NCBI GenBank assembly: GCA_965655095.1
Contig: OZ296649.1
Location: forward strand, 148,862,001 to 148,926,000
DNA length: 64,000 bases
Origin: Haplodiscus bocki
Lineage: Eukaryota
Reading direction: 5' to 3'
Positions 1 through 64,000 of the stretch are shown here, piece after piece; position 1 is the first letter of the stretch, and every line of letters begins with the position of its first letter. A model generated the notes under the pieces. That model worked only from the letters and a program-made list of their open reading frames with translations. It was not told where the DNA came from and made no database searches. Position numbers and translations under genes: made by a program.

Positions 1-1434
1 GGATATGAGAGGGAACATTCGTAAGCTAAGACAGTAGTTGCCTTAGCTCTGATAAACAAAGCAACACGTGGTTTATTGTAGGCAACCTCATGTGGATTTG
101 TACTACAATCATCAAGTCGATTAAGGTTAAACCGGCGTACGTTAAGACGTTCTCGAAAAAAATATTGCATTGCCAAAAAGTCGTTAATATGGTCTTCATT
201 GACAGAGTGAGTTTGATCTTCAAGAGGTTCGTCGTTCAGGAGAGGAAACTGGAGAACTAAGAAGAGCTGGAGTATGATAATCTTGAACATGGAGTATAAA
301 AGGTAGCAGTTCCACGAGGAGTGCAAGTAGTTGGATCAAAATTAAATTTTAGGCTTGAACAAACAAACGAGGCAGGTGAGGTTCTATATGTTATATCTGG
401 GCAGAAAATTGGAATGGGATGAACATATAATCTTTCAAAACAAACGCGTATGGAGAACTGAATTTCTAAATTGAGTTTATAAAGGATGGCAATTTCCTCA
501 GTCTTTTTTGCGGGACTAAGACTTAGAGAGCGATTTATATTAACAATGCCATCGGATTCAAGAGTGTTATCAAGATAAAACCCAGTAGAAAGAAAATTAA
601 AGGACTGTGCGTATTGATGGATATTTCAAAAGTTCTGGAGAGAGGGAGGTAATTCATGTGATGAATTTAAACTGAAACATTGAATGTGAAGTTCGAGACA
701 AGTAGTCGTATCCAAAGATGTATGCTCAAGAGATGTAGGATTAATTAAAATATGGATTGGACGAGGAGAAAGGTCAGTAGTTGACAATAATGCAATATTT
801 AATTTACGAGACGGGTTAGTAATGGGTGTAGAAGGTGAGCGAGAGGTAAGTGGTGTATTAGATTGGCGAGGAGAGGAATGAAGGTAGCTTGTGAGTTTGT
901 TAGTTGTGTTAAAAAATTTGTAGACATTACAACTATAGTTCCTCTGATAGAGGAAAAAGTACGAAAAAACTTAGTACTTCCAGTGTTATTGAAATCATCG
1001 TCAGATAAGGTTATGGCATCATAAGAAAGGATTATGGTATCGTTAAATTCGTTTCCTGGGAGAATATCGGGGAGTGGTCCACTTGGTAAAATATTCTCGT
1101 TATAATATGGTGAAGCAATTTTTGAAAAGATTAAAAAAAACTACCTATTAGAGAAGAAACGTGAAGAAGAGGTTTGAATTTCGTTGTTTGAAGGCTGAAA
1201 GATCACAGGAGTTGAAAATTGCAGAGAGTGGTATCTATGAAATTTAAAGAGTCGGTTAACTATTTTGTACTTTTCAGTAAAATACCGATATGGAAAGTTC
1301 AAAAAATAGAGAGACCGGTTACTTGAACGAAATCTAGTAAGTTAGCAAAGAAGAAATGAACGTTTGAAGAGATGCATCTTGATGAGTTTGTTAATTTTCA
1401 TATAACTGTGAGATAGAATCTTTAAATGTTAAGA

Positions 1435-1562
1435 AGCAGGAAGAGATATTTTTGTTGTTCGTCAAGTATCAACAAGAGATATTTTGTTGTTTGTTAAATA
1501 GCAGCAAGAGAGCTTCTGTTAATTGTCAAGTAGAAGCAAGAGAGCTTTTGTTGATTTCATGT
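1435..1562. repeat. Four degenerate ~32-bp direct subrepeats inside each unit (representative copy in U0)
   Basis: AGCAGGAAGAGATATTTTTGTTGTTCGTCAAGT / ATCAACAAGAGATATTTTGTTGTTTGTTAAAT / AGCAGCAAGAGAGCTTCTGTTAATTGTCAAGT / AGAAGCAAGAGAGCTTTTGTTGATTTCATGT. Present in every unit; two subrepeats are lost in U13. Confidence 0.9.
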
Positions 1563-2091
1563 ACCAGCTGAATGAGTCGAAGATAAGCGATGAATGAAGA
1601 GAACAAAGTATTCAGCTAAACTATTTTGCAGTGGAAAATCTAATGATTGGTTGAGGACTTCGTATCATGGAAATTTGTTGGATAGCAGCGAGTTTGACTT
1701 GGGAGGTAACATAACGTTCTAGAAAGTTGTTTTGATTTGCGAAGCGTATATCGGTTATTAAATGTCGAGGATCGAGTTCAAAGAGTATCTATCGAAATCA
1801 ACAATATTCGTACCGGTGCAATCCCAACGCTCGGTTGGTAACTCCGTTGAAAAACGATCTGATTGGTAGGCGAGTTTCATAACAGAGATAAATGTAGGTT
1901 CTAAGAAACTGTTTGGATTTTCGAATAGTTTATTAGTCTTTCAAAATGTCGGAGAACGAAGTCAAAACATCTACAAAACTGAAAGTTTAACTTGTTTTGA
2001 TAGGCGGTGTAGTTATGAACAGACAAAGGGATTATTTGGAAGGATAATCATTTTGAAAAACAGAGGCTGTCTAAACTGATTTGAGCTATTT

Positions 2092-2610
2092 TTATCCCGA
2101 GTGAACATAATATTTAGATGGAGGTATATGGGTGCGGTAGTCTTTGACAGGTTGTCGTCGAAGATGGCGGGCTGTTCGGGATTGAGAATATACGGAAGTT
2201 TGGGAAGATGTTGCGCCTAGTGGAGGCGCCGTTGGTGTTTTGGTATCAATTTTATTGGTATTTGCTTGATCATTCAGCGTAGTAGGCTGTTGTTGAGAAT
2301 TATCAAAGATTAATGGAGACGAAGTGTCGTCATCAGGGGAATTTATCGAGGTTTGGTGCCTGTCAGTCAAAAAGAAATCTGGTGTAGTCTCGTTGCCAGA
2401 ATCTTCTAGCAAATCGTATGGTAATCGCTCGGGTGCATATATTTCGCCGGCTGGGTTAAACGAGGATATGGTTATATGTGGCTTAAAAGAAACCGTTTTA
2501 TATTGTTGAAAAAGTTATTCTAAATGGGGGACAACGAGATAAAATGGGATCAAATGGTTTCGGTGTGGGAACAAAACATTTCCTTGATGTGACAGTAACT
2601 GATATTTCAC
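2092..2610 (-). pseudogene. pol 3' end fragment (integrase C-terminus) in U0
   Basis: Homologous to 31591..32109. The ORF track lists its distal 106 codons (2092..2412). Confidence 0.65.
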
Positions 2611-2613
2611 ATT

Positions 2614-3256
2614 TTACTCGACGCATTGTATTTGTAGAACCGTCTGGAATCCATGATTTATATTGTGATTGAGGGCTGTAGACACATACACCATAAAAAT
2701 CTTGATCCAATGGGGTGGCTTGCATGGAACTTCGAATACGAATGAGATAATTTCGCTGTCCTAAATCAGTTAAGAAAACAATAGTTTGAGGAGATTCCAT
2801 GGTTCGGTTAGATCGTGGACCGGAAAGTTCCAGGAGAAAGCTGACATGACTCTGACAGCCATTCCTAGTAACAGCATGATACCTAAACATTGTGCTCGGA
2901 TAGTAACTTTGTCGATCATGTTAATGGTTAGTCTTAGTATTGTATACAAAAATTTCAGTTGTTTTTGTATATGAGAGGGAAAATTGGTAAGCCAAGACAG
3001 TAGTTGCCTTAGCTCTGATAAACAAATCAACACGTGGTTTATTGTAGGCAACGTCATGTGGATTTGTACTACAATCATCAAGTCGATTAAGGTTAAACCG
3101 GCGTATGTTGAGACGTTCTCGACAAAAATAATGAATTGCCAATATGTTGTTTATTTCGTCTTGATTGACAGTGTGAGTTTGATCTTCAAGAGGTTCGTCG
3201 TTCAGGAGAGGAAACTGGAGAGCTAAGAAGAACTGGAGTATGATAATCTTGAACAT
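2614..3256 (-). pseudogene. env-like glycoprotein 5' fragment (U1)
   Basis: ATG at 3256 (MFKIIILQFFLALQFP). ORFs 2921..3304 and 2498..2890 are in the same frame, split by the shared TAA at 2921-2923. Confidence 0.62.
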
Positions 3257-6200
3257 GGAGTATAAAAGGTAGCAGTTCCACGGGAGTGCAAGTAGTTGGA
3301 TCAAAATTAAATTTCAGGCTTGAATAAACGAGGCAGGTGAAGTTCTATATGTTAAATCTGGGCAGAAAAGTGGAATGGGATGAACATATAATCTTATAAA
3401 ACAAACGCGTATGGAGAACTGAATTTCTAAATTGGGTTTATAAAGGATGAAAATTTCCTTAGTCTTGTTTTCGGGACTAAGACTTAAAGAGCGATTTATA
3501 TTAACAATGCCATCGGATTCAAGAATGGTGTCAAGATAAAATCCAGTAGAAAGAAAATTAAAGGACTGTGCGTTTTGATGGGTATTTCAAAAGTTCTGGA
3601 GAGAGGGAGGTAACTCATGTGATGAATTTAAACTGAAACATTGAATGTGACGTTCGGCACAAGTAGTCGTATCCAAAGATGTATGCTCAAGAGATGTAGG
3701 GCTAATTAAATTACGGATCGGAAGAGGAGAAAGGTCAGTAGTTGACAATAATGCAATATTTAAATTACGAGACGGGTTAGTATTGGATGTAGAAGGTGAA
3801 CGAGAGGTAAGTGGTGTATTACATTGGCGAGGAGAGGAATCAACATAGTTTGTGAGTTTGTTAGTTGTGTTAAATTACTCGGAGACATTACAATTATAGT
3901 TCCTCTGATAAGGGAAAAAGTACGAAAAAATTGAGTACTTCCAGTAATAATGAAATCATCGTCAGATAAAGTTATGGCATCATAAGAAAAGATTATGGTA
4001 TCGTTAAATTCGTTTCCTGGGAGAATATCGGGGAGTGGTCTACTTGGTAAAAGACTCTGGTTATGATATGGTGAAGCAATTTTTGAAAAGATTAAAAAAA
4101 ACTACCTATGTGAGAAGAAACGTGAAGAAGAGGTTTGAATTTCGTTGTTTGAAGGCTGAAAGATCACAGGAGTTGAAAGATGCAGAGTGGTATCTTTGAA
4201 AAATTAAAGAGTCGGTTGACTAATTTGTACTTTTCAGCAAAATACCGATATGGAAAGGTGTTCAAAAATTAGAGTGACCGGTTATTTGAACGAAATCTAG
4301 TAACTTAGCAAAGACGAAATGAGCGGTTGAAGAGATTCATCTTGATGATTTTGTTAATTTTCAAAAAACTGTGAGATAGAATCTTTATATATTAAGAAGC
4401 GGCAAGAGAGATTTTTGTTGTTCGTCAAGTATCAACAAGAGATATTTTGTTGTTTGTTGAATAGCAGCAAGAGAGCTTCTGTTCTTTGTCAAGTAGTAGC
4501 AAGAGAGCTTTTGTTGATTTTAAGTACCGGCTGAATGAGTTGAAGATTAGCGATGGATGAAGAGAAGAAATTATTCAACTAATCTCTTTTGCAGTGGAAA
4601 ATCTAATGATTGGTTGAGGACTTCGTATCATGGAATTTTGTTGGCTAGCAGCGAGTTTGACTTGGGAGGTAGCCTAACGTTCTAGAAAGTTGTTTTGAAT
4701 TCCGAAGCGTATATCGGTTATTAAATGTCGAGGATCGATTTCAAAGAGTATCTATCGAAATCAACAATATTCTTACCGGAACAATCCCAACGCTCGGTTG
4801 GTAACTCCGTTAAAAAATGATCTGATTGGTAGGCGAGTTTCATAACAGAGATAAATGTAGGTTCTAAGAAACTGTTTGGATTTTTGAATAGTTTAGTCTT
4901 TCAAAATGTCGGAGAACGAAGTCAAAACATCTACAAAAATGAGAGTTTATTTTGCTTTGATATGCGGTGTAGTTATGAACAGACAAAGGCATTATTTGGA
5001 AAGATAACAATTTTGAAAAACAGAGGCTGTCTAAACTGATTTGAGCTATTTTTATCCCGAGTGAAAATAATATTTAGATGGAGGTATATGGGTGCGGTAG
5101 TCTTTGACAGGTTGTCGAAGACGGCGGGTTGTTCGGGATTGATAATATAGGGAAGTTTAGGAAGATGTTGCGCCTAGTGGATGCCCTGTTGGTGTTTTGG
5201 TATCAGTTTGATTGGTATTTGCTTGATCATTTAGCTTATTAGACTGTTGTTGAGAATTATCAAAGATTAATGGAGACGAAGTGTCGTCATCAGGGGAATT
5301 CATCGAGGTTTGGTGCCTGTCAGAAATCTGGTGTAGTCTCGTTGCCAGAATCTTCTAGCGAATCGTAAGGTAATTGCTCGGGTGCATATATTTCGCCGGC
5401 AGGGTTAAACGAGGATAGGGTTATATGTGGCTTAAAAGAAACCGTTTTATATTGTTGGAAAAGTTATTCTAAATGGGGGAGAACGGGATAAAATTGGATC
5501 AAAAGGTTTCGGTGTGCGAACAAAACATTTCCTTGATGTGACAGTAACTGATATTTCACATTTTACTCGACGCATTGTATTTGTAGAACCATCTGGAATC
5601 CATGATTATTAATGTGATTGAGGGCTGTAGGCCCATACACCATAAAAATCTTGATCCAATGGGGTGGCTTGCATGGAACTTTGAATACGAATGAGATAAT
5701 TTTGCGGTCCTAAATCAGTTAAGAAAACAATAGTTTGAGGAGATTCCTTGGTTCGGATAGATCGTGGACCGGAAAGTTCCAAGAGAAAGCTGACATGACT
5801 CTGACAGCCATTCTTAGTAACAGCATGATACCTCACCAGTGTGCTCGGATAGTAACTTTGTCGATCATGTTATTGGTTAGTCTCAGTATTGTAGACATAA
5901 ATTTTAGTTGTTTTTGTATATGAGAGGGAAAATTGGTGAGCTAAGACAGCAGTTGGTTCTCGACAAGAATAATGAATTGCGAATATGTCGTTAATTTGGT
6001 CTTGATTGACAGTGTGAGTTTGATCTTCAAGAGGTTCGTCGTTCAGGAGAGGAAACTGGAGAGCTAAGAAGAACTGGAGTATGATAATCTTGAACATGGA
6101 GTATAAAAGGTAGCAGCAGTTCCACGGGAGTGCAAGTAGTTGGATCAAAATTAAATTTCAGGCTTGAATAAACGAGGCAGGTGAGGTTCTATATGTTAAA

Positions 6201-9200
6201 TCTGGGCAGAAAAGTGGAATGGGATGAACATATAATCTTTTAAAACAAACGCGTATGGAGAACTGAATTTCTAAATTGGTTTTACAAAGGATGGCGATTT
6301 CCTTAGTCTTTTTTGCGGGACTAAGACTTAAAGAGCGATTTATATTAACAATGCCATCGGATTCAAGAATGGTGTCAAGATAAAATCCAGTAGAAAGAAA
6401 ATTAAAGGACTGTGCGTTTTGATGGGTATTTCAAAAGTTCTGGAGAGAGGGAGGTAACTCATGTGATGAATTTAAACTGAAACATTGAATGTGACGTTCG
6501 GCACAAGTAGTCGTATCCAAAGATGTATGCTCAAGAGATGTAGGGCTAATTAAATTACGGATCGGAAGAGGAGAAAGGTCAGTAGTTGACAATAATGCAA
6601 TATTTAAATTACGAGACGGGTTAGTATTGGATGTAGAAGGTGAACGAGAGGTAAGTGGTGTATTACATTGGCGAGGAGAGGAATCAACATAGTTTGTGAG
6701 TTTGTTAGTTGTGTTAAATTACTTGGAGACATTACAATTATAGTTCCTCTGATGAGGGAAAAAGTACGAAAAAATTGAGTACTTCCAGTAATAATGAAAT
6801 CATCGTCAGATAAAGTTATGGCATCATAAGAAAAGATTATGGTATCGTTAAATTCGTCTCCTGGGAGAATATCGGGGAGTGGTCTACTTGGTAAAAGATT
6901 CTGGTTATGATATGGTGAAACAATTTTTGAAAAAATTAAAAAAAACTACCTATGTGAGAAGAAACGTGAAGAAGAGGTTTGAATTTCGTTGTTTGAAGGC
7001 TGAAAGATCACAGGAGTTGAAAGATGCAGAGTGGTATCTATGAAAAATTAAAGAGTCGGTTGACTATTTTGTACTTTTCAGCAAAATACCGATATGGAAA
7101 GTGTTCAAAAATTAGAGAGACCGGTTATTTGAACGAAATCTAGTAACTTAGCAAAGACGAAATGAACGGTTGAAGAGATGCATCTTGATGAGTTTGTTAA
7201 TTTTCATATAACTGTGAGATAGAATCTTTAAATGTCAAGAAGCAGGAAGAGATATTTTTGTTGTTCGTCGAGTATCAACAAGAGATATTTTGTTGTTTGT
7301 TGAATAGCAGCAAGAGAGCTTCTGTTCTTTGTCAAGTAGTAGCAAGCGAGCTTTTGTTGATTTTAAGTACCGGCTGAATGAGTTGAAGATTAGCGATGGA
7401 TGAAGAGAAGAAATTATTCAACTAAACTATTTTCCAGTGGAAAATCTAAAGATTTGTTGAGGACTTCGTATCATGGAATTTTGTTGGCTAGCAGCGAGTT
7501 TGACTTGGGAGGTAACCTAACGTTCTAGAAAGTTGTTTTGAATTCCGAAGCGTATATCGGTTATTAAATGTCGAGGATCGAGTTCAAAGAGTATTTATCG
7601 AAATCAACAATATTCTTACCGGAACAATCCCATCGCTCGGTTGGTAACTGCGTTAAAAAACGATCTGATTGGTAGGCGAGTTTCATAACAGAGATAAATG
7701 TAGGTTCTAAGAAACTGTTTGGATTTTTGAATAGTTTATTAGTCTTTCAAAATGTCGGAGAACGAAGTCAAAACATCTACAAAAATGAAAGTTTATTTTG
7801 CTTTGATATGCGGTGTAGTTATGAACAGACAAAGAGATTATTTGGAAAGATAACAATTTTGAAAAACAGAGGCTGTCTAAACTCATTTGAGCTATTTTTA
7901 TCCCGAGTGAAAATAATTTTTAGATGGAGGTATATGGGTCCGGTAGTCTTTGACAGGTTGTCGTCGAAGACGGCGGGTTTATCGGGATTGATAATATCCG
8001 GAAGTTTGGGAAGATGTTGCGCCTAGTGGAGGCGCTGTTGGTGTTTTGGTATCAGTTCGATTGGTATTTGCTTAATCATTCAGCGTAGTAGGCGGTTTTT
8101 GAGAATTATCAAAGATTAATGGAGACGAAGTGTCGTCATCAGTGGAATTTATCGAGGTTTGGTGCCTGTCAGTCAAAAAGAAATCAGGTGTAGTCTCGTT
8201 GCGAGAATCTTCTAGCGAATGGTAAGGTAATTGCTCGGGTGCATATATTTCGCCGGCTGGGTTAAACGAGGATATGGTTATATGTGGCTTAAGAGAAACC
8301 GTTTTATATTGTTGGAAAAGTTATTCTAAATGGGGGACAACGGGATAAAATGGGATCAAATGGTTTCGGTGTGCGAACAAAACATTTCCTTGATGTGACA
8401 GTAACTGATATTTCACACTTTACTCGAGGCATTGTATTTGTAGAACCATCTGGAATCCATGATTATTAATGTGATTGAGGGCTGTAGGCCCATACACCAT
8501 AAAAAACTTGATCCAATGGGGTGGCTTGCATGGAACTTTGAATACGAATGAGATAATTTTGCGGTCCTAAATCAGTAAAGAAAACAATAGTTTGAGGAGA
8601 TTCCATGGTTCGGTTAGATCGTGGACCGGAAAGTTCCAAGAGAAAGCTGGCATGACTCTGACAGCCATTCCTAGTAACAGCATGATACCTAAACATTGTG
8701 ATCGGATAGGAACTTTGTCGATCATGTTAATGGTTAGTCTTAGTATTGTATAAAAAAATTTCAGTTGTTTTTGTATATGAGAGTGAAAATTGGTGAGCTA
8801 AGACAGTAGTTGCCTTAGCTCTGATAAACAAATCAACACGTGGTTTATTGTAGGCAACGTCATGTTGATTTGTACTACAATCATCAATTCGATTAAGGTT
8901 AAACCGGCGTACGTTAGGACGTTCTCGACAAGAATAATGAATTACGAATATGTCGTTAATTTGGTCTTGATTGACAGTGTGAGTTTGATCTTCAAGAGGT
9001 TCGTCGTTCAGGAGAGGAAACTGGAGAGCTAAGAAGAGCTGGAGTATGATAATCTAGAACATGGAGTATGAAAGGTAGCAGTTCCACGAGGAGTGCAAGT
9101 AGTTGAATCGAAATTAAATTTTAGGCTTGAACAAACAAACGAGGCAGGTGAGATTCTATATGTTATATCTGGGCAGAAAAGTGGAATGGGACGAACATAT

Positions 9201-10883
9201 AATCTTTCAAAACAAACGCGTATGGAGAACTGAATTTCTAAATTGGGTTTATAAAGGATGGCAATTTCCTTAGTCTTTTTTTGCGGGACTAAGACTTAAA
9301 GAGCGATTTATATTAACAATGCCATCGCATTCAAGAGTGTTATCAAGATAAAATCCAGTAGAAAGAAAATTAAAGGACTGTACGTTTTGATGGGTATTTC
9401 AAAAGTTCTGGAGAGAGGGAGGTAATTCATGTGATGAATTTAAACTGAAACATTGAATGTGACGTTCGAGACAAGTAGTCGTATCCAAAGATGTATGCTC
9501 AAGAGATGTAGGATTAATTAAATTATGGATTGGACGAGGAGAAAGGTCAGTAGTTGACAAAAATGCAATATTTATATTACGAGACGCGTTAGTATTGGGT
9601 GTAGAAGGTTAACGAGAGGTAAGTGGTGTAATAGATTGGCGAGGAGAGGAATGAACATAGTTTGTGAGTTTGTTACTTGTGTTAAATTACTTGGAGACAT
9701 TACAATTATAGTTCCTCTGATAAGGGAAAAAGTACGAAAAAAATTAGTACTTCCAGTAATATTGAAATCATCGTCAGATAAAGTTATGGCATCATAAGAA
9801 AGGATTATGGAATCGTTAAATTCGTTTCCTGGTGGAATATCGGGGAGTGGTCTACTTGGTAAAATATTCTGGTTGACATGGTGAAGCAATTTTTGAACGG
9901 AATAAAAAAAACTAACTATGTGAGATGAAACGTGAGGAAGAGGTTTGAATTTCGTTGTTTGAAGGCTGAAAAATCACAGGAATTGAAAAAAGCAGAGAGT
10001 GGTATCTATGAAATTTAAAGAGTCGGTTAACTATTTTGTATTTTTTAGTAAAATACCGATATGGAAAGTGTTCAAAAACTAGAGGGACCGCTTTTTTGAA
10101 GGAAATCTAGTAGCTTGGCAAGGAAGAAAAGAACGATTGAAGAGATTCATCTTGATGAGTTTGTTAATTTTCAAATAACTGTGGGATACAATCTTTAAAT
10201 GTTAAGAAGCAGCAAGAGAGATTTTTGTTGTTCGTCAAGTATCACCAAGAGATATTTTGTTGTTTGTTAAATAGCAGCAAGAGAGCTGTTATTTGTCAAG
10301 TAGTAGCAATAGAGCTTTTGTTGATTTTAAGTACCAGCTGAATGAGTCGAAGATAAGCGATTAATGAAGAGAAGAAATTATTCAGCTAAACTATTTTGCA
10401 GTGGAAAATCTAAAGATTGATTGATGACTTCGTATCATGGAAATTTGTTGGCTAGCAGCGAGTTTGACTTGGGAGGTAACTTAACGTTCTAGAAAGTTGT
10501 TTTGACATCCGAAGCGTATATCGATTAAAAAATGTCGAAGATCGATTTCAAAGAGTATCTATCGAAATCAACAATATTCGTAACGGTGCAAACCCAACGC
10601 TCGGCTGGTAACTCCGTCAAAAAACGAGTTGATAGGTAGGCGAGTTTCATAAGAGAGATAAATGTAGGTTCTAAGAAACTGTTTGGATTTTTGAATAGTT
10701 TATTAGTCTTTCAAAATGTCGGAGAATGAAGTCAAAACATCTACAAAACTGAAAGTTTAACTTGTTTTGATAGGCGGTGTAGTTATGAACAGACAAAGGG
10801 ATTATTTGGAAGGATAATCATTTTGAAAAACAGAGGCTGTTTAAACTGATTTGAGCTATTTTTATCCCGAGTGAAAATAATAT

Positions 10884-11378
10884 TTAGATGTGAGGTATAT
10901 GGGTCCGGTAGTCTTTGACAGGTCGTCGAAGACGGCAAGTTTTTCGGGATTGAGAAAATACGGAAGATTGGGAAGATGTGGCGCCTAGTGGAGGCACTGT
11001 TGGTGTTATGTTATCAGTTTGATTGGTATTTCCTTGATCATTCAGCGTAGTAGGCGGTTGTTGAGAATTATCAAAGATTAATGGAGACGAAGTGTCGTCA
11101 TCAGGGGAATTTATCGAAGTTTGGTGCCTGTCAGTCAAAAAGAAATCTGGTGTAGTCTCGTTGCCAGAATCTTCTAGCAAATCGTAAGGTAATCGCTCGG
11201 GTGCATATATTTCGCCGGCTGGGTTAAACGAGGATATGGTTATATGTGGCTTAAAAGAAACCGTTTTATTTTGTTGAAAAAGTTTTTCTAAATGGGTGAC
11301 AACGTGATAAAATGGGATCAAATGGTTTCGGTGTGCGAACAAAACATTTCCTTGATGTGACAGTAACTGATATTTCAC
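10884..11378 (-). pseudogene. pol 3' end fragment (integrase C-terminus), open copy in U3
   Basis: 164 open codons homologous to 31591..32109, including the HRNHLIPFY motif. Confidence 0.72.
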
Positions 11379-14300: not shown

Positions 14301-17300
14301 CGGTGTTTGAACAAAACATTTCCTTGATGTGACAGTAACTGATATTTCACATTTTACCCAACGCATTGTATTTGTAGAACCGTCTGAAATCCATGACTTT
14401 TATTGTGATTGAGGGCTGTAGACCCATACACCATAAAAATCTTGATCCAATGGGGTGGCTTGCATGGAACTTTGAATACGAATGAGATAATTTTGCGGTC
14501 CTAAATCAGTTAAGAAAACAATAGTTTGAGGAGATTCCATGGTTCGGTTAGATCGTGGACCGGAAAGTTCCAGGAGAAAGCTGACATGACTCTGACAGCC
14601 ATTCTTAGTAACAGCATGATACCTAACCAGTGTGCTCGGATAGTAACTTTGTCGATCATGTTATTGGTTAGTCTTAGTATTGTAGACATATATTTTAGTT
14701 GTTTTTGTATATGAGAGGGAACATTGGTAAGCTAAGACAGTAGTTGCCTTAGCTCTGATAAACAAATCAACACGTGGTTTATTGTAGGCAACGTCATGTG
14801 GATTTGTACTACAATCATCAAGTCGATTAGGGTGAAACCGGCGTACGTTAAGACGTGCTCGACAAAAATATTTAATTGCCAATATGTTGTTAATTTGGTC
14901 TTGATTGACAGTGTGAGTTTGATCTTCAAGAGGTTCGCCGTTCAGGAGAGGAAACTGGAGAGCTAAGGAGAGCTGGAGTATGATGGTCTTGAAAAAGGAT
15001 TAAAAAAGGTAGCAGTTCCACGAGGAGTGCAAGTAGATGGATCAAAATTAAATTTTAGGCTTGCACAAACAAACGAGGCAGGTGAGGTTCTATAGCTTAT
15101 ATCTGAGCAGAAAAGTGGAAAGGGACGAACATATAATCTTTTAAAACAAACGCGTATGGAGAACTGAATTTCCAAATTGGGTTTATAAAGGATGGCAATT
15201 TCCTTAGTCTTTTTTGCGGGACTAATACTTAAAGAGCGATTTATATTAACAATGCCATCGGATTCCAGAGTGTTATCAAGATAAAATCCAGTACAAAGAC
15301 AATTAAAGGACTGTGCGTTTCGATGGGTATTTCAAAAGTTCTGGAGAGAGGGAGGTAATTCATGTGATGAATTTAAACTGAAACATTGACTGTGACGTTC
15401 GATACAAGTAGTCGTATCCAAAGATGTATGCCCAAGAGATGTAGGAATAATTAAATTATGGATTGGACGAGGAGAAAGGTCAGTAGTTGACAATAATGCA
15501 ATAATTAATTTACGAGACGGGTTAGTAATGGGTGTAGAAGGTGAACGAGAGGTAAGTGGTGTATTAGATTGGCGAGGAATGAACATAGTTTGTGAGTTTG
15601 TTAGTTGTGTTAAATTACTTGGAGACATTACAATTATAGTTCCTCTGATAAGGGAAGAAGTACGAAAAAATTTAGTACTTCCAGTAATATTGAAATCATC
15701 GTCAGATAAAGTTATGGCATCATAAGAAAGGATTATGGTATCGTTAAATTCTTTTCCTGGGAGAATATCGGGGAGTGGTCTATTTGGTAAAATATTCTGG
15801 TTAAGATATGGTGAAGCAATTTTTGAAAAGAATAAAAAAGTACCTTTGTGAGATGAAACGTGAAGAAGAGGTTTGAATTTCGTTGTTTGAAGGCTGAAAG
15901 ATCAGAGGAGTTGAAAATTGGAGAGAGTGGTATCTATGAAATTTAACTATTTTGTATTTTTTAGTAAAATACCGATATGGTAAGTGTTCAAAAACTAGAG
16001 TGACCACTTTTTTGAAGGAAATCTAGTAGCTTAGCAAAGAAGAAATGAACGATTGAAGAGATTCATCTTGATGAGTTTGTTAATTTTCAAATAACTGTGA
16101 GATACAATCTTTAAATGTTAAGAAGCAGCAAGAGAGATTTTTGTTGTTCGTCAAGTATCAACAAGAGATATTTTGTTGTTTGTTAAATAGCAGCAAGAGA
16201 GCTTCTGTTATTTGTCAAGTAGTAGCAAGAGAGCTTTTGTTGATTTCATGTGCCAGCTGAATGAGTCGAAGATAAGCGATGAACGAAGAGAAGAAATTAT
16301 TCAGCTAAACTACTTTGCAGTGAAAAACTAATGAGTGGTTGAAGACTTCGTATCATGGAATTTTGTTGGCTAGCAGCGAGTTTGACTTGCGAGGTAACTT
16401 AACGTTCTAGAAAGTTGTTTTGAGTTCCGAAGCGTATATCGATTATAAAATGTCGATGATCGAGTTCAAAGAGTATCTATCGAAATCAACAATACTCGTA
16501 CCGGTGCAATCCCAACGCTCGGTTAGTAACTCCGTCAAAAAACGATCTGATTGGTAGGCGAATTTCATAAGAGAGATAAATGTAGGTTCTAAGAAACTGT
16601 TTGGGTTTTTGAATAGTTTATTAGTCTTTCAAAATCTCGGAAAACGAAGTCAAAACATCTAAAAAAAATGAAAGTTTATTTTGCTTTGATATGCGGTGTA
16701 GTTATGAACAGACAAAGAGATTATTTGCAAAGATAACAATTTTGAAAAACAGAGGCTTTCTAAACTGATTTGAGCTATTTTTATCCCGAGTGAAAATAAA
16801 ATTTAGATGGAGGTATATGGGTGCTGTAGTCTTTGACAGGTTGTCGTCGAAGACGGCGGGTTGTTCGGGATTGATAATATCCGGAAGTTTGGGAAGATGT
16901 TGCGCCTAGTGGAGGCGCTGTTGGTGTTTTGGTATCAGTTTGATTGGTATTTGCTTGATCAATCAGCATAGTAGGCGGTTGTTGAGAATTATCAAAGATT
17001 AATGGAGACGAAGTGTCGTCATCAGTGGAATTTATCGAGGTTTGGTGCCTGTCAGTCAAAAAGAAATCTGGTGTAGTCTCGTTGCCAGAATCTTCTAGCG
17101 AATCGCAAAGTAATCGCTCGCGTGCATATATTTCGCCGGCTAGGTTAAACGAGGATATGGTTATATGTGGCTTGAAAAAAAACCGTTTTATATTGTTGAA
17201 AAAGTTATTCTAAATGAGGGACAACGGGATAAAATGGGATCAAATGGTTTCGGTGTGCGAACAAAATATTTCCTTGATGTGACAGTAACTGATATTTCAC

Positions 17301-17459
17301 ATTTTACCCGACGCATTGTATTTGTAGAACCGTCTGGAATCCATGATTTATATTGTGATTGAGGGCTGTAGACCCATACACCATAAAAATCTTGATCCAA
17401 TGGGGTGGCTTGCATGGAACTTTGAATACGAATGAGATAATTTTGCTGTCCTAAATCAG

Positions 17460-17475
17460 TTAACCGGCCGGTTAA
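17460..17475. repeat. Perfect 16-bp palindrome TTAACCGGCCGGTTAA (also at 20414-20429 and 23366-23381)
   Basis: Read directly from the sequence. It replaces TTAAGAAAACAA found in most other units. Confidence 0.95.
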
Positions 17476-27157: not shown

Positions 27158-27176
27158 GAGAGAGAGAGAGAGAGAG
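27158..27176 (+). repeat. (GA)9G microsatellite expansion in U9
   Basis: Other units read GGAGAGAGGGAGG at this site. Confidence 0.9.
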
Positions 27177-41586: not shown

Positions 41587-41921
41587 GGATTATTAAAGGT
41601 AGGAGTTCCACGAGGAGTGCAAGTAGATGGATCAAAATTAAATTTTAGGCTGGCACAAACAAACGAGGCATGTGAGGTTCTATAGGTTATATCTGAGCAG
41701 AAAAGTGGAACGGGACGAACATATAAGCTTTTAAAACAAACGCGAATGGAGAACTGAATTTCTAAATTGGGTTTACAAAGGTTGGCAATTTCCTCAGTCT
41801 TTTTTGCGGGAGTAAGACTTAAAGAGCGATTTATATTAACAATGCCATCGGATTCGAGAGTGTTATCAAGATAAAATCCAGTAGAAAGAAAATTAAAGGA
41901 CTGTGCGTTTTGATGGGTATT

Positions 41922-42488
41922 TCAAAAGTTCTGGAGAGAGGAAGGTAATTCATGTGATGAATTTAAACTGAAACATTGAATGTGACGTTCGAGACAAGTA
42001 GTCGTATCCAAAGATGTATGCTCAAGGGATGTAGGATTGATTAAATTATGGACTGGACGAGGAAAAAGGTCAGTAGTTGACAATAATGCAATATTTAATT
42101 TACGAGACGGGTTAGTAAATGGTGTAGAAGGTGAACGAGAGGTAAGTGGTGTATTAGATTGGCGAGCAATGAACATAGTTTGTGAGTTTGTTAGTTGTGT
42201 TAAATTACTTGGAGACATTACAATTATAGTTCCTCCGATAAGGGAAAAAGTACGAAAAAATTTAGTACTTCCAGTAATATTGAAATCATCATCAGATAAA
42301 GTTATGGCATCATAAGAAAGGATTATGGTATCGTTAAATTCGTTTCCTGGGAGAATATCGGGGAGTGGTCTATTTGGTAAAATATTCTGGTTAAGATATG
42401 GTGAAGCAATTTTTGAAAAGAAGAAAAAACTACCTTTGTGAGATGAAACGTGAATAAAAGGTTTGAATTTCGTTGTTTGAAGGCTCAA
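41922..42488 (-). pseudogene. ORF B N-terminal part, truncated by TGA (U14; near-identical copy at 44879..45445)
   Basis: 188 codons nearly identical to 35693..36628 up to the CGA/TGA polymorphic codon. Confidence 0.55.
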
Positions 42489-54400: not shown

Positions 54401-57400
54401 GGTTAACTATTTTGTATTTTTTAGTAAAATACCGATATGGAAAGTGTTCAAAAACTAGAGGGACCGCTTTTTTTGAAGGAAATCTAGTAGCTTAGCAAAG
54501 AAGGAATGAACGATTGAAGAGATTCATCTTGATGAGTTTGTTAATTTTCAAATAACTGTGAGATACAATCTTTAAATGTTAAGAAGCAGCAAGAGAGATT
54601 TTTTTGTTCGTCAAGTATCAACAAGAGATATTTTGTTGTTTGTTAAATAGCAGCAAGAGAGCTTCTGTTATTTGTCAAGTAGTAGCAAGAGAGCTTTTGT
54701 TGATTTCATGTACCAGCTGAATGAGTCGAAGATAAGCGATGAATGAAGAGAAAAAATTATTCAGCTAAACTATTTTGCAGTGGAAAGCCTAATGAGTGGT
54801 TGAGGACTTCGTATCATGGAATTTTATTGGCTAGCAGCGAGTTTGACTTGGGAGGTAACTTAACGTTCTAGAAAGTTGTTTTGAATTCCGAAGCGTATAT
54901 TGGTTATAAAATGCCGCAGAACGAGTTCAAAGAATATCTATCGAAAGCAACAATGTTCGTACCGGTGCAATCCCAATGCTCGGTTGGTAACTCCGTCAAA
55001 AAACGATTTGATAGGTAGGCGAGTTTCACAAGAGAGAAAAATGTAGGTTCTAAGAAACTGTTTGGATTTTTGAATAGTTTATTAGTCTTTCAAAATGTCG
55101 GAGAATGAAGTCAAAACATCTACAAAACTGAAAGTTTAATTTGTTTTGATAGGCGGTGTAGTTATGAACAGACAAAGGGATTATTTGGAAGGATAATAAA
55201 TTTGAAAAACAGAGCCTGTCTAAACTGATTTGAGCTATTTTTATCCCGAGTGAAAATAATATTTAGATGGAGGTATATGGGTGCGGTAGTCTTTGACAGG
55301 TTGTCGTCGAAGACGGCGGGTTGTTCGGGATAGATAATATCCGGAAGTTTGGGAAGATGTTGCGCTTACTGGAGGCGCTGTTGGTGTTATGTTATCAGTT
55401 TGATTGGTATTTGCTTGATCATTCAGCGTAGTAGGCGGTTGTTGAGAATTATCAAAGATTAATGGAGACGAAGTGTCGTCATCAGTGGAATTTATCGAGG
55501 TTTGCTGCCTGTCAGTCAAAAAGAAATCTGGTGTAGTCTCGTTCCCAGAATCTTCTAGCGAATCGCAAAGTAATCGCTCGCGTGCATATATTTCGCCGGC
55601 TAGGTTAAACGAGGATATGGTTATATGTCGCTTAAAAAAACCGTTTTATATTGTTGGAAAAGTTATTCTAAATGGGGGACAACGGGATAAAATGGGATCA
55701 AATGGTTTCGGTGTGCGAAATAAACATTTCCTTGATGTGACAGTACCTGATATTTCACATTTTACTCGACGCATTGTATTTGTAGAACCGTCTGGAATCC
55801 ATGATTATTATTGTGATTGAGGGCTGTACACCCATACACCATAAAAATCTTGATCCAATGGGGTCGCTTGCATGGAACTTTGAATACGAATAAGATAATT
55901 TTGCTGTCCTGAATCAGTTAAGAAAGCAATAGTTTGAGGAGATTCCATGGTTCGGTTAGACCGTGGACCGGAAAGTTCCAAGAGAAAGCTGACATGACTC
56001 TGATAGCCATACCTAGTAACAGCATGATACCTAACCATTGTCCTCGGATAGTAACTTTGTCGATCACGTTAATGTTTAGTCTTAGTATTGTATACATAAA
56101 TTTTAGTCGTTTTTTGTATATGAGAGGGAACGTTGTTAAGCTAAGACAGTAGTTGCCTTAGCTCTGATAAAACAAATCACCACGCGGCTTATTGTAGGCC
56201 ACGTCATGTGGATTTGTACTACAATCATCAAGTCGATTAATGTTAAACCGGCGTACGTTAAGACGTTCTCGACAAAAATAATGAATTGCCAATATGTTGT
56301 TTATTTCGTCTTGATTGACAGTGTGAGTTTGATCTTCAAGAGGTTCGTCGTTGAGGAGAGAGAGAATGTGAGGGAACTGGAGAGCTAAGAAGAGCTGGAG
56401 TATGACAATTGTGAACAAGGATTATAAAAGGTAGCAGTTCCACGAGGACTGCAAGTAGATGGATCAAAAACAAATTTCAGGCTTCAATAAACGAGGCAGG
56501 TGAGGTTCTATAGGTTATACCTGGGCAGAAAAGTGGAACGGGACTAACATATAATCTTTTAAAACAAACGCAAATGGAGAACTGAATTTCTAAATTGGGT
56601 TCATAAAGGATAGCAATTTCCTTAGTCTTTTTTGCGGGACTAAGACTTAAAGAGCGATTTATATTAACAATGCCATCGGAATCAAGAGTGTTATCAAGAT
56701 AAAATCCAGTAGAAAGAAAATTAAAGGACTGTGCGTTTTGATGGGTATTTCAAAAGTTCTGGAGAGAGGGAGGTAAGTTATGTGATGAATTTAAACTGAA
56801 ACATTGAATGTGACGTTCGAGACAAGTAGTCGTATCCAAAGATGAATGCTCAAGAGAGGTAGGATTAATTAAATCATGAATTGGACGAGGAAAAAGGTCA
56901 GTAGTTGACAATAATGCAATATTTAAATTACGAGACGGGTTAGTATTGGGTGTAGAAGGTGAACGAGAGGTAAGTGATGTAGTAGATTGGCGAGGAATGA
57001 ACATAGTTTGTGAGTTTGTTAGTTGTGTTAAATTACTAGGAGACATTACAATTATAGTTCCTCTGATAGAGGAAAAAGTACGAAAAAACTTAGTACTTCC
57101 AGTGTTACTGAAATCATCGTCAGATAAAGTTATGGCATCATAAGAAAGGATTATGGTATCGTTAAATTCGTTTCCTGGGAGAATATCGGGGAGTGGTCTA
57201 CTTGGTAAAATATTCTGGTTACGATATGGTGAAGCAATTTTTGAAAAAATTAAAAAACTACCTATGTGAGATGAAACGTGAAGAAGAGGTTTGAATTTCG
57301 TTGTTTGGGGGCTGATAGATCACAGGAGTTGAAAATTGGAGAGAGTGGTATCTATGAAATTTAAAGAGTCGGTTAACTATTTTGTATTTTTTAGTAAAAT

Positions 57401-59305
57401 ACCGATATGGAAAGTGTTCAAAAACTAGAGGGACCGCTTTTTTTGAAGGAAATCTAGTAGCTTAGCAAAGAAGGAATGAACGATTGAAGAGATTCATCTT
57501 GATGAGTTTGTTAATTTTCAAATAACTGTGAGATACAATCTTTAAATGTTAAGAAGCAGCAAGAGAGATTTTTTTGTTCGTCAAGTATCAACAAGAGATA
57601 TTTTGTTGTTTGTTAAATAGCAGCAAGAGAGCTTCTGTTATTTGTCAAGTAGTAGCAAGAGAGCTTTTGTTGATTTCATGTACCAGCTGAATGAGTCGAA
57701 GATAAGCGATGAATGAAGAGAAAAAATTATTCAGCTAAACTATTTTGCAGTGGAAAGCCTAATGAGTGGTTGAGGACTTCGTATCATGGAATTTTATTGG
57801 CTAGCAGCGAGTTTGACTTGGGAGGTAACTTAACGTTCTAGAAAGTTGTTTTGAATTCCGAAGCGTATATTGGTTATAAAATGCCGCAGAACGAGTTCAA
57901 AGAATATCTATCGAAAGCAACAATGTTCGTACCGGTGCAATCCCAATGCTCGGTTGGTAACTCCGTCAAAAAACGATTTGATAGGTAGGCGAGTTTCACA
58001 AGAGAGAAAAATGTAGGTTCTAAGAAACTGTTTGGATTTTTGAATAGTTTATTAGTCTTTCAAAATGTCGGAGAATGAAGTCAAAACATCTACAAAACTG
58101 AAAGTTTAATTTGTTTTGATAGGCGGTGTAGTTATGAACAGACAAAGGGATTATTTGGAAGGATAATAAATTTGAAAAACAGAGCCTGTCTAAACTGATT
58201 TGAGCTATTTTTATCCCGAGTGAAAATAATATTTAGATGGAGGTATATGGGTGCGGTAGTCTTTGACAGGTTGTCGTCGAAGACGGCGGGTTGTTCGGGA
58301 TAGATAATATCCGGAAGTTTGGGAAGATGTTGCGCTTACTGGAGGCGCTGTTGGTGTTATGTTATCAGTTTGATTGGTATTTGCTTGATCATTCAGCGTA
58401 GTAGGCGGTTGTTGAGAATTATCAAAGATTAATGGAGACGAAGTGTCGTCATCAGTGGAATTTATCGAGGTTTGCTGCCTGTCAGTCAAAAAGAAATCTG
58501 GTGTAGTCTCGTTCCCAGAATCTTCTAGCGAATCGCAAAGTAATCGCTCGCGTGCATATATTTCGCCGGCTAGGTTAAACGAGGATATGGTTATATGTCG
58601 CTTAAAAAAACCGTTTTATATTGTTGGAAAAGTTATTCTAAATGGGGGACAACGGGATAAAATGGGATCAAATGGTTTCGGTGTGCGAAATAAACATTTC
58701 CTTGATGTGACAGTACCTGATATTTCACATTTTACTCGACGCATTGTATTTGTAGAACCGTCTGGAATCCATGATTATTATTGTGATTGAGGGCTGTACA
58801 CCCATACACCATAAAAATCTTGATCCAATGGGGTCGCTTGCATGGAACTTTGAATACGAATAAGATAATTTTGCTGTCCTGAATCAGTTAAGAAAGCAAT
58901 AGTTTGAGGAGATTCCATGGTTCGGTTAGACCGTGGACCGGAAAGTTCCAAGAGAAAGCTGACATGACTCTGATAGCCATACCTAGTAACAGCATGATAC
59001 CTAACCATTGTCCTCGGATAGTAACTTTGTCGATCACGTTAATGTTTAGTCTTAGTATTGTATACATAAATTTTAGTCGTTTTTTGTATATGAGAGGGAA
59101 CGTTGTTAAGCTAAGACAGTAGTTGCCTTAGCTCTGATAAAACAAATCACCACGCGGCTTATTGTAGGCCACGTCATGTGGATTTGTACTACAATCATCA
59201 AGTCGATTAATGTTAAACCGGCGTACGTTAAGACGTTCTCGACAAAAATATTTAATTGCCAATATGTTGTTAATTTGGTCTTGATTGACAGTGTGAGTTT
59301 GATCT

Positions 59306-60007
59306 TCAAGAGGTTCGTCGTTCAGGAGAGGAAACTGGAGAGCTAAGAAGAGCTGGAGTATGATAGTCTTGAAAAGGATTAAAAAAGGTAGCAGTTCCAC
59401 GAGGAGTGCAAGTAGATGGATCAAAATTGAATTTTAGGCTTGCACAGACAAACGAGGAAGGTGAGGTTCTATAGGTTATATCTGAGCAGAAAAGTGGAAA
59501 GGGACGAACATATAATCTTTTAAAACAAACGCGTATGGAGAACTGAATTTCTAAATTAGGTTTATAAAGGATGGCAATTTCCTTAGACTTTTTCGCGGGA
59601 CTAAGACTTAACGAGCGATTTATATTAACAATGCCATCGGATTCAAGAGTGCTATCAAGATAAAATCCAGTAGAAAGAAAATTAAAGGACTGTGCGCTTT
59701 GATGGGTATTTCGAAAGTTCTGGAGAGAGGGAGGTAATTCATGTGATGAATATAAACTGAAACATTGAATGTGACGTTCGAGACAAGTAGTCGTATCCAA
59801 AGATGTATGCTCAAGAGATGTAGGATTAATTAAATTATGGATTGGACGAGGAGAAAGGTCAGTAGTTGACAATAATGCAATATTTAATTTACGAGACGGG
59901 TTAGTAATGGGTGTAGAAGGTGAACGAGAGGTAAGTGATGTAGTAGATTGGCGAGGAATGAACATAGTTTGTGAGTTTGTTAGTTGTGTTAAATTACTTG
60001 GAGACAT
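59306..60007 (-). pseudogene. ORF B C-terminal part (U20)
   Basis: 233 open codons homologous to 35693..36628. It carries CGA at the polymorphic stop and is frameshifted near its 3' end. Confidence 0.55.
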
Positions 60008-62262
60008 TACAATTATAGTTCCTCTGATAGAGGAAAAAGTACGAAAAAACTTAGTACTTCCAGTGTTATTGAAATCATCGTCAGATAAAGTTATGGCATC
60101 ATAAGAAAGGATTATGGTATCGTTAAATTCGTTTCCTGGGAGAATATCGGGGGGTGGTCTGCTTGTTAAAATACTCTGGTTATGATATAGAGAAGCAATT
60201 TTTGAAAAGACTAAAAAAGTACCTTTGTGAGATGAAACGTGAAGAAGAGGTTTGAATTTCGTTGTTTGAAGGCTGAAAGATCAGAGGAGTTGAAAATTGG
60301 AGAGAGTGGTATCTATGAAATTTAAAGAGTCTGTTGACTATTTTGTACTTTTCAGTAAAATACCGATATGGAAAGTTTTCAAAAATTAGAGAGACCGGTT
60401 ACTTGAACGAAATCTAGTAACTTAGCAAAGAAGAAATGAACGGTTGAAGAGATGCATCTTGATGACTTTGTTAATTTTCATATAACTGTCAGATGGAAAC
60501 TTTAAATGTTAAGAAGCCGGAAGAGATATTTTTGTTGTTCGTCAAGTATCAACAAGAGATATTTTGTTGTTTGTTAAATAGCAGCAAGAGAGCTTCTGTT
60601 ATTTGTCAAGTAGCAAGAGAGCTTTTGTTGATTTTAAGTACCAGCTGTATGAGTCGAAGATAAGCGCTGAATGAAGAGAAAAATTATTCAGCTAAACAAT
60701 TTTGCAGTGGAAAATCTAATGATTGATTGATGACTTCGTATCATGGAAATTTGTTGGCTAGCAGCGAGTTTGACTTGGGAGGTAACTTAACGTTTTAGAA
60801 AGTTGTTTTGAATTCCGAAGCGTATATTGGTTATAAAATGCCGAAGATCGAGTTCAAAGAGTATCTATCGAAAACAACAATGTTCGTACCGGTGCAATCC
60901 CAATGCTCGGTTGGTAACTCCGTCAAAAAACGATTTGATAGGTAGGCGAGTTTCACAAGAGAGAAAAATGTAGGTTCTAAGAAACTGTTTGGATTTTTGA
61001 ATAGTTTATTAGTCTTTCAAAATGTCGGAGAATGAAGTCAAAACATCTACAAAACTGAAAGTTTAATTTGTTTTGATAGGCGGTGTAGTTATGAACAGAC
61101 AAAGGGATTATTTGGAAGGATAATAAATTTGAAAAACAGAGCCTGTCTAAACTGATTTGAGCTATTTTTATCCCGAGTGAAAATAATATTTAGATGGAGG
61201 TATATGGGTGCGGTAGTCTTTGACAGGTTGTCGTCGAAGACGGCGGGTTGTTCGGGATAGATAATATCCGGAAGTTTGGGAAGATGATGCGCTTACTGGA
61301 GGCGCTGTTGGTGTTATGGTATCAGTTTGATTGGTATTTGCTTGATCATTCAGCGTAGTAGGCGGTTGTTGAGAATTATCAAAGATTAATGGAGACGAAG
61401 TGTCGTCATCACTGGAATTTATCGAGGTTTGCTGCCTGTCAGTCAAAAAGAAATCTGGTGTAGTCTCGTTCCCACAATCTTCTAGCGAATGGTAAGCTAA
61501 TCGCTCGGGTCCATATATTTTACCGGCTGGGTTAAACGAGGATATGGTTATATGTCGCTTAAAAAAACCGTTTTATATTGTTGGAAAAGTTATTCTAAAT
61601 GGGGGACAACGGGATAAAATGGGATCAAATGGTTTCGGTGTGCGAAATAAACATTTCCTTGATGTGACAGTACCTGATATTTCACATTTTACTCGACGCA
61701 TTGTATTTGTAGAACCGTCTGGAATCCATGATTATTATTGTGATTGAGGGCTGTACACCCATACACCATAAAAATCTTGATCCAATGGGGTCGCTTGCAT
61801 GGAACTTTGAATACGAATGAGATAATTTTGCTGTCCTGAATCAGTTAAGAAAGCAATAGTTTGAGGAGATTCCATGGTTCGGTTAGACCGTGGACCGGAA
61901 AGTTCCAAGAGAAAGCTGACATGACTCTGATAGCCATACCTAATAACAGCATGATACCTAACCATTGTCCTCGGATAGTAACTTTGTCGATCACGTTAAT
62001 GTTTAGTCTTAGTATTGTATACATAAATTTTAGTCGTTTTTTGTATATGAGAGGGAACATTGTTAAGCTAAGACAGTAGTTGCCTGAGCTCTGATAAAAC
62101 AAATCACCACGCGGTTTATTGTAGTCCACGTCATGTGGATTTGTACTACAATCATCAAGTCGATTAAGGTTAAACCGGCGTACGTTAAGACGTTCTCGAC
62201 AAAAATATTTAATTGCCAACATCTTGTTAATTTGGTCTTGATTGACAGTGTGAGTCTGATCT

Positions 62263-62964
62263 TCAAGAGGTTCGTCGTTCAGGAGAGGAAACTGGAGAGC
62301 TAAGAAGAGCTGGAGTATGATAGTCTTGAAAAGGATTTAAAAAGGTAGCAGTTCCACGAGGAGTGCAAGTAGATGGATCAAAATTGAATTTTAGGCTTGC
62401 ACAAACAAACGAGGCAGGTGAGGTTCTATAGGTTATATCTGAGCAGAAAAGTAGAAAGGGACGAACATATAATCTTTTAAAACAAACGCGTATGGAGAAC
62501 TGAATTTCTAAATTAGGTTTATAAAGGATGGCAATTTCCTTAGTCTTCTTCGCGGGACTAAGACTTAAAGAGCGATTTATATTAACAATGCCATCGGATT
62601 CAAGAGTGCTATCAAGATAAAATCCAGTAGAAAGAAAATTAAAGGACTGTGCGCTTTGATGGGTATTTCGAAAGTTCTGGAGAGAGGGAGGTAATTCATG
62701 TGATGAATTTAAACTGAAACATTGAATGTGACGTTCGAGACAAGTAGTCGTATCCAAAGATGTATGCTCAAGAGATGTAGGATTAATTAAATTATGGATT
62801 GGACGAGGAGAAAGGTCAGTAGTTGACAATAATGCAATATTTAATTTACGAGACGGGTTAGTAATGGGTGTAGAAGGTGAACGAGAGGTAAGTGATGTAG
62901 TAGATTGGCGAGGAATGAACATAGTTTGTGAGTTTGTTAGTTGTGTTAAATTACTTGGAGACAT
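62263..62964 (-). pseudogene. ORF B C-terminal part (U21)
   Basis: 233 open codons, near-identical to 59306..60007. Confidence 0.55.
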
Positions 62965-64000
62965 TACAATTATAGTTCCTCTGATAGAGGAAAAAGTACG
63001 AAAAAACTTAGTACTTCCAGTGTTATTGAAATCATCGTCAGATAAAGTTATGGCATCATAAGAAAGGATTATGGTATCGTTAAATTCGTTTCCTGGGAGA
63101 ATATCGGGGGGTGGTCTGCTTGTTAAAATACTCTGGTTATGATATAGAGAAGCAATTTTTGAAAAGAATAAAAAAGTACCTTTGTGAGATGAAACGTGAA
63201 GAAGAGGTTTGAATTTCGTTGTTTGAAGGCTGAAAGATCAGAGGAGTTGAAAATTGGAGAGAGTGGTATCTATGAAATTTAAAGAGTCGGTTAATTATTT
63301 TGTATTTTTTAGTAAAATACCGATATGGAATTTGTTCAAAAATTAGAGAGACCGGTTACTTGAACGAAATCTAGTAACCTGGCAAAGAAGAAATGAACGG
63401 TTGAAGAGATGCATCTTGATGAGTTTGTTAATTTTCATATAACTGTGAGATAGAATCTTTAAATGTTAAGAAGCAGGAAGAGATATTTTTGTTGTTCGTC
63501 AAGTATCAACAAGAGATATTTTGTTGTTTGTTAAGTAGCAGCAAGAGAGCTTCTGTTATTTGTCAATGGTAGCAAGAGAGCTTTTGTTGATTTTAAGTAC
63601 CAGCTGAATGAGTCGAAGGTAAGCGATGAATGAAGAGAAGAAATTATTGAGCTAAACTATTTTGCAGTGGAAAAACTAATGAGTGGTTGAGGACTTCGTA
63701 TCATGTAATTTTGTTGGCTAGCAGCGAGTTTGACTTGGGAGGTAACATAACGTTCTAGAAAGTTGTTTTGAATTCCGAAGCGTATATCGATTATAAAATG
63801 CCGAAGATCGAGTTCAAAGAGTATCTATCGAAAACAACAATGTTCGTACCGGTGCAATCCCAATGCTCGGTTGGTAACTCCGTCAAAAAACGATTTGATA
63901 GGTAGGCGAGTTTCACAAGAGAGAAAAATGTAGGTTCTAAGAAACTGTTTGGATTTTTGAATAGTTTATTAGTCTTTCAAAATGTCGGAGAATGAAGTCA

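Follow-up and report, generated by a model that had tools for sequence, protein, structure and literature searches.

A 191-kb macrosatellite built from an internal slice of a Ty3/gypsy element in what appears to be an intersectin-like intron of Haplodiscus bocki

How does a long stretch of genome come to consist of one internal piece of a retroelement, repeated over and over, and where is the rest of that element? The question is raised by a stretch of 64 kb (the window: C2:148,862,001-148,926,000, where C2 is contig OZ296649.1) within the 1.5-Gb genome of Haplodiscus bocki. A first-pass annotation, made from the letters of the window, had described it as a macrosatellite derived from the pol-env interval of an env-bearing retroelement. 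The window proves to be part of an array of 65 units that is still enclosed by the remainder of its parent, a Ty3/gypsy element. It is very likely that a slice of this element was duplicated in situ, that the array then grew stepwise by exchange between units, and that it now lies as neutral sequence in an intron of an intersectin-like gene.

The window is tandem repeat throughout. The 21-mers that recur in it are spaced 2,844-2,978 bp apart (about 2.95 kb), and the number of inverted partners among them is zero. A 200-bp probe matched the window 22 times, each time on the same strand, which agrees with the annotated number of about 22 copies of 2.95 kb in one orientation; the array as a whole, whose ends were located by taking 100 kb of flank on each side of the window, is considerably longer and runs past both window ends as had been stated:

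C2:148,820,691-149,011,807, minus strand: the whole array (191,117 bp, 65 units)
window 1..64000, minus strand: the portion of the array in the window (20 whole units, u31-u50, and partial u30 and u51)
window 14366..17315, minus strand: example unit u46 (2,950 bp)

Unit lengths vary from 2,816 to 2,978 bp, all 65 units lie on the same strand, and both array ends fall at an identical phase of the unit. Since the unit lengths total exactly 191,117 bp, the array contains no foreign DNA, in line with the annotated absence of unique DNA between the copies. Several features by which macrosatellites derived from transposable elements (TEs) are recognised are found here: head-to-tail kilobase units, an extent of many tens of kilobases and a monomer that is entirely TE-derived. 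The locus lies inside a gene, 2.7 Mb from the end of the contig. The window further displays a strong strand bias (GC skew of about +0.3 across 1-64000). Between the end units the transition/transversion ratio is about 0.9, and the unit has no CpG depletion.

Both ends of the array lead into the remainder of the same element, as the first-pass annotation had predicted for an array grown in situ. One end continues into the integrase core, RNase H, reverse transcriptase (RT), the gag region and the 5' long terminal repeat (LTR), the other into the remaining part of env and then the 3' LTR. The parental element itself thus encloses the array at this locus, and single-unit relatives are dispersed in the genome. 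The parts of the parent outside the array are:

C2:149,018,343-646, minus strand: 5' LTR (from the LTR pair)
C2:149,011,808-149,018,342, minus strand: gag region, RT, RNase H and integrase core (from the flank of the array)
C2:148,813,597-148,820,690, minus strand: rest of env, a post-env open reading frame (ORF) and a 2.8-kb insertion (from the flank of the array)
C2:148,813,295-596, minus strand: 3' LTR (from the LTR pair)

The LTRs (304 bp; 271/304 positions identical, 89%) are direct repeats with TG...CA ends, the end of the 3' LTR differing by one letter, and they enclose the array and its flanks. A TGG word (primer site) follows the 5' LTR, a purine tract precedes the 3' LTR, and the target duplication is 4 bp long (CTAT/CTAT). 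A 4-bp target duplication was observed for relatives as well (exact on C7, with one mismatch on C43), and two of four relatives lack a clean LTR start. A Pfam scan of the flanks (19 fragments, 4 informative matches) found RT (PF00078, E 1e-6), RNase H (PF17917, E 9e-10) and, weakly, the integrase core (rve_3, E 0.008) in the upstream flank. In the downstream flank env matched PF24664 (Monjiviricetes_fusion) at E 6e-6, which is below the cut-off; in the relative L032 the same family reached E 6e-7 and 28.3 bits (cut-off 27). The RT had two PDB matches only, Ty3 RT (E 6e-12) and Ty3 Gag-Pol (E 2e-11), and env had none among the PDB sequences. The gag/protease region was placed by its position, five fragments of it having been scanned without a relevant Pfam match.

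The features of the LTR pair, together with the order RT-RNase H-integrase and the Ty3-like RT, are those of a Ty3/gypsy element. In addition, env sits after pol and resembles class III fusion proteins, of the glycoprotein B (gB) type, as in errantiviruses of the gB type. By sequence, the parent is consistent with the gB-type env-bearing Ty3/gypsy elements of PMC13524379. The post-env ORF (L006:5694-6455; L035:6526-7566) has no real Pfam match, and its ratio of nonsynonymous to synonymous substitution rates (dN/dS), 0.51, is the strongest purifying signal seen; with ORF X, described below, it makes two extra ORFs, one on either side of env. The insertion in the 3' part of the element is an unrelated repeat of about 2.8 kb (L006 ~2890-5730), which lies beside an 87-bp direct duplication and has relatives at L003, L047, L048 and L049.

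Each unit consists, in this order, of about 530 bp of integrase tail, a non-coding spacer, ORF X and approximately the first 630 bp of env. In unit u46 these are found at:

window 16784..17315, minus strand: integrase C-terminal tail, colinear with relatives and with the flank that holds the integrase core; broken in most units
window 16116..16242, no strand: 32-bp micro-repeat in about 4 copies, within the non-coding pol-env spacer
window 14966..15901, minus strand: ORF X, unnamed, upstream of env; broken in most units
window 14366..14995, minus strand: env 5' part (PF24664 positions ~26-114), which in relatives continues into the env flank
window 17305..17326, minus strand: head-to-tail junction, where the env 5' part is joined to the integrase tail

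The integrase tail starts right after what we take to be a GPY-like motif, the alignments to relatives frequently break near the micro-repeat, and the start of env resembles a signal peptide as judged by eye. A search of the window for LTR, gag, pol-core and env-3' sequence yielded no match, which confirms that an internal coding slice lacking the replication functions was amplified. Frames covering at least 90% of their zone were found for the integrase tail in 11 of the 65 units, for ORF X in 5 and for the env 5' part in none. Two Pfam scans of eight unit frames each had no match to an integrase profile; one of them had PF24664 at E 0.018 in a single frame and the other was informative for none of the eight. 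The expected profile similarity of the translated unit was thus seen weakly for env and failed for integrase, and both identities follow from colinearity with the flanks and with relatives, not from profile matches of the unit itself.

ORF X belongs to no Pfam family. It has 52 homologues at E<=0.001 in a representative library, and the eight that were looked up are all unnamed; its AlphaFold model (mean predicted local distance difference test score, pLDDT, of 46) is too poor for a structure search. Word-index protein searches with ORF X and with the env piece of L035 returned nothing, and the env start had no usable match in the ESM Atlas. Within the array the ratio of nonsynonymous to synonymous differences per site (pN/pS) is 0.70-1.19 in six frames; frame-shifting indels outnumber in-frame ones in five of these and equal them in the sixth. 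The array is non-coding, and its coding frames decay neutrally.

The family to which the parent belongs is dispersed, with 95-443 candidates per probe, of which 40 were scored for each probe. Among those scored, identity to the best-matching other copies is 81-83% in the internal parts and 89% in the LTR, by which measure the family looks old. Sixteen dispersed copies were examined: pol, unit and env follow each other once in 13, deletions affect this region in 3, and none has a tandem unit. No open frame of more than 347 codons was present in the unit interval of the 14 copies scanned, and env is broken in every family copy seen. Two copies, L031 and L032 (C4:77.16 and 76.70 Mb), are close sisters (support 100/100), possibly through segmental duplication, and a LINE-like RT frame, recognised by eye, is inserted in another (L036:7844-8431).

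All 64 junctions between units have the same breakpoint, which on comparison with relatives shows little or no microhomology. A 16-mer across the junction has 52 matches in the genome, all 52 inside the array, and the sampled units (25 of the 65) form one clade (25/25, support 100/100) against 13 relatives. This single junction points to one illegitimate event by which the 2.95-kb stretch running from the integrase tail into the first part of env would have been doubled, at or soon after the insertion of the Ty3/gypsy element with its gB-type env, in sense orientation, into what the exon anatomy suggests is an intersectin-like intron. The Kimura two-parameter distance (K) between u01 and u65 is 0.1145+/-0.013, close to the 0.111+/-0.040 between the two LTRs. 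By these two clocks of similar reading the founding duplication was probably early, and we infer that it fell within about the first third of the residence of the element. Differences from the relatives that are fixed in at least 90% of the units, the edge unit included, comprise 18 synonymous and 26 nonsynonymous changes (pN/pS 0.42, p=0.006, pN 0.021), with 8 and 6, respectively, in ORF X. Because the fixed differences are enriched for synonymous change, much of the stem of the array clade probably predates the insertion.

The subsequent growth of the array has left its traces in the units. Their pairwise distance averages 7.4% (range 0-11.4%) and climbs steadily with separation: adjacent units (lag 1) differ by 3.5%, those at lag 60 by 10.1%. 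Neighbours cluster together in the unit tree. The units are mosaic, with a four-gamete incompatibility that rises from 0.15 to 0.42 with growing distance between sites (332 sites), and five pairs at lag 2 suggest growth in steps of two units. Under the theory of unequal exchange and conversion, homogenisation should be weakest in the outer half of each end unit. Indeed, it is in their outer halves that u01 and u65 resemble other units least: over the first 900 columns of u01 the nearest unit differs by 6.4-7.1%, and over the last 1,500 columns of u65 by 4.6-8.2%, compared with 0.3-2.0% over the inner half of that unit. Along the unit, diversity changes rather little (4.8-10.5%). Local homogenisation and exchange between units are the hallmarks of concerted evolution, and the distance-dependence, the mosaics and the poorly homogenised outer halves favour unequal exchange and gene conversion over a single rolling-circle burst. 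It appears that the two direct copies became the substrate for repeated unequal exchange between sister chromatids or homologues and for gene conversion, by which units would have been added and homogenised locally, at times in pairs, up to 65 copies. The array, which now codes nothing and decays neutrally, would be tolerated as bulk in an intron of 207 kb.

The gene around the element has on the same strand, in this order, an EH domain, a coiled coil and the element, followed by an exon with DPF repeats and by four SH3 domains, so that the element lies in sense orientation relative to its host. The exons next to the element are:

C2:149,019,541-748, minus strand: host coiled-coil exon (208 bp), before the element
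from about C2:148,812,529, minus strand: host DPF exon (DPF repeats), after the element

The order EH - coiled coil - SH3 domains on one strand is that of Intersectin/Dap160, here with one EH and four SH3 domains; no first EH or fifth SH3 was located. The EH exons were found through motifs, and the EH exon has intersectin-1 as its best PDB match (E 2.5e-9; PF12763, E 0.016). Two of the SH3 exons match intersectin 1 or 2 best. EPS15, an earlier candidate for the host gene, was set aside in view of the SH3 exons. The intersectin-like gene and this type of env both mark the host as an animal. A word-index protein search with the coiled-coil exon found nothing. The peptide at the start of the coiled coil has one match in the genome and the last SH3 no close second copy, and by sequence the gene is apparently single-copy. 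The phase at the end of the coiled-coil exon is 2; of the six candidate acceptors upstream of the DPF exon, one matches it in the open frame. The gap between the two exons is 207,011 bp, and the remaining gaps between the exons found are 1.3-58 kb. This exon anatomy suggests an intron of about 207 kb with the element inside it.

Other repeats occur in and near the same gene. Another of its introns contains, beside a scaffold gap of 200 N, frames for a DNA polymerase B of the protein-primed type (PF03175, E 2e-14; L044:2435-4510) and a second, similar copy (L045:6162-8058); both are Maverick/Polinton-like. Just downstream of the gene lies a second tandem array, with a 1,413-bp unit in at least 3.5 copies that are 94% alike (L001:1-4989), and between the SH3 exons there are two very recent local duplications (906 bp, 99.8%; 699 bp, 99.9%; L005:780-5242).

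Other histories of the locus have to be weighed against in-situ duplication followed by stepwise exchange. The first-pass annotation had left open whether the expansion at the DNA level proceeded by unequal crossover or by a rolling circle, and had excluded retrotransposition. Expansion at the DNA level stands, and the pattern favours stepwise growth. The first duplication itself could nevertheless date from reverse transcription, if template switching of the reverse transcriptase produced an element that integrated with two units and grew later at the DNA level. This is possible though unlikely. It would account for the equal K of the end units and the LTR pair, and the purifying selection still visible in the array-wide fixed changes leaves little neutral time (pN of about 0.02) before the array ancestor. 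However, that value may equally represent neutral time after insertion, the interval on the LTR distance is wide, the junction has little or no microhomology, and no second element with the junction was found, although an exact 16-mer would often be lost in old copies. An origin of most of the array in one burst of rolling-circle or break-induced replication of a 2.95-kb circle, re-integrated into the parent, we consider improbable: the integer number of units, the equal phase at both ends, the single junction type and the short deep nodes of the unit tree would suit it, but unequal exchange predicts an integer number too, and the distance-dependent divergence, local clades, two-unit steps and mosaics, with divergences from 0% to 11%, speak of many stepwise events.

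Selection might also keep the array, either because host read-through yields small RNAs that act on the family or because it serves as a spacer that tunes the transcription or splicing of intersectin. The array, carried on the transcribed strand of a single-copy and probably essential gene, has persisted for about 0.055 substitutions per site under ongoing turnover, and the giant satellite-filled introns of Drosophila have special expression programmes (PMC6508621). Yet coding constraint is absent, the diversity of the unit is fairly flat, and the family looks old, so that there is little left to silence; we regard such selection as improbable. That assembly produced all or most of the array as an artefact seems scarcely credible, even though a handful of nearby units differ little or not at all (u33/u35 0.0%; u17/u18 and u21/u22 0.07%). 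An artefact is at odds with the ordered structure at a mean distance of 7.4% and with the short-read Logan contigs of four runs (two samples of one study, possibly the sample of the assembly). These contigs show the head-to-tail joint in one run (X3), the junction letters at a unit edge in all four and, among the pieces shown, a bridge from the array edge to pol in three (X1, X2, X4). The summed depth in X1 is about 1,300 for the unit (mean of 14 bins), against 16-20 for exact contigs of the flanks, though depth is no copy number. For the pol flank (L019:5748-8936), exact contigs of 940, 838 and 528 bp have a depth of 17-20 in X1 and contigs of other copies 26-72; this is a weak hint that the element is perhaps on one homologue only, depth being unsafe as a measure of copy number.

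Several observations nevertheless count against in-situ duplication, stepwise growth and an intersectin-like host as set out here. Near-identical neighbours may include assembly errors, so that 65 is the count of the assembly, and recurrent mutation contributes to the four-gamete incompatibility. The timing is soft. The stem of the array clade is 0.051, and between family copies K is 0.16 for the LTRs versus about 0.24 for internal parts. Flank-versus-relative dN/dS ranges from 0.51 to 1.03, with RT at 1.03. The lower divergence of the LTRs and the dN/dS of RT imply that the LTR clock may run slow. As to the host, GRB2 and others outrank intersectin, which is among the matches, for the other two of the four SH3 exons, and a genome-wide search for the EH family missed the locus. 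The DPF acceptor was picked for its phase among six AG sites, phase compatibility covers the two exons flanking the element, and exon order and this phase fit make up the case for splicing across 207 kb.

The kind of array is known already. Satellites that derive from segments of LTRs, gag or pol have been described (PMC12628747), as have CRM1TR and CRM4TR of maize and potato Sobo, the last with a monomer of 4.7 kb and an array of about 360 kb (cited in PMC3648361); the first-pass annotation had rightly named maize CRM and potato as precedents. Like CRM1TR and CRM4TR, the present monomer came out of a Ty3/gypsy element through an illegitimate junction and was homogenised by local conversion or unequal exchange. 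In contrast to those LTR and untranslated-region derivatives at plant centromeres and pericentromeres, it is an internal coding slice in the apparent intron of an animal gene, and LTRs and target duplication still enclose the array (PMC3648361). The 'LTR arrays' of human MaLR are megasatellites with units of about 3.5 kb made up wholly of LTR-element sequence, internal parts included, which spread by unequal crossing-over, and several large ones lie in introns; they are mosaics of LTR and internal sequence in both orientations, 25 arrays in segmental duplications with at most 25 units among those listed, whereas here one clean slice forms 65 units at a single locus with the parent retained (PMC2588610). 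Internal-to-internal junctions are common among tandems of Drosophila LTR elements too, but those are low-copy and ascribed to deletions across head-to-tail tandems, and the present array occupies 191 kb within one element (PMC5932611). The family shares with the HSV/gB-type 'ancient errantiviruses' the Ty3/gypsy type, the order gag-pol-env and the class III-type match of env; that paper deals with intact elements, while the present family is broken in every copy seen and has extra ORFs before and after env (PMC13524379). In the main text of that paper the words 'tandem' and 'accessory' do not occur. In the literature at the level of titles and abstracts, where subscription journals are thinly covered, we found no array of a pol-env slice in a fully flanked element and none in an intersectin intron.

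The fertility genes of the Drosophila Y, which are testis genes, have megabase introns filled with simple satellites. There as here tandem DNA swells an intron to hundreds of kilobases (PMC6508621), with the difference that here a single retroelement-derived macrosatellite would do so in the gene of an endocytic scaffold protein. What is new at this locus is an unusually complete, datable and intronic variant built from a coding slice and sited in an intersectin-like gene.

A further step, which we offer as unlikely speculation, is that an intact single-copy intersectin is transcribed and spliced across 191 kb of sense repeats that are still turning over, with alleles that differ hugely in intron length (the element being maybe on one homologue) and possibly with small RNAs against its own family. 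If this were true, the locus would provide a natural allelic series for how intron gigantism begins and what it costs. Most TE-derived satellites no longer have their parent, and how they arose is left to conjecture. At this locus the two LTRs and the target duplication survive together with both breakpoints, and there are many one-unit relatives; the LTR pair and the end units each serve as an internal clock, and the order of the 65 units keeps a record of how the array grew. The locus shows that a macrosatellite of 190 kb can start from a coding interval whose ends share little or no homology. One such event has apparently brought an intron of a gene central to endocytosis to over three times the size of the next-largest exon gap found in it.

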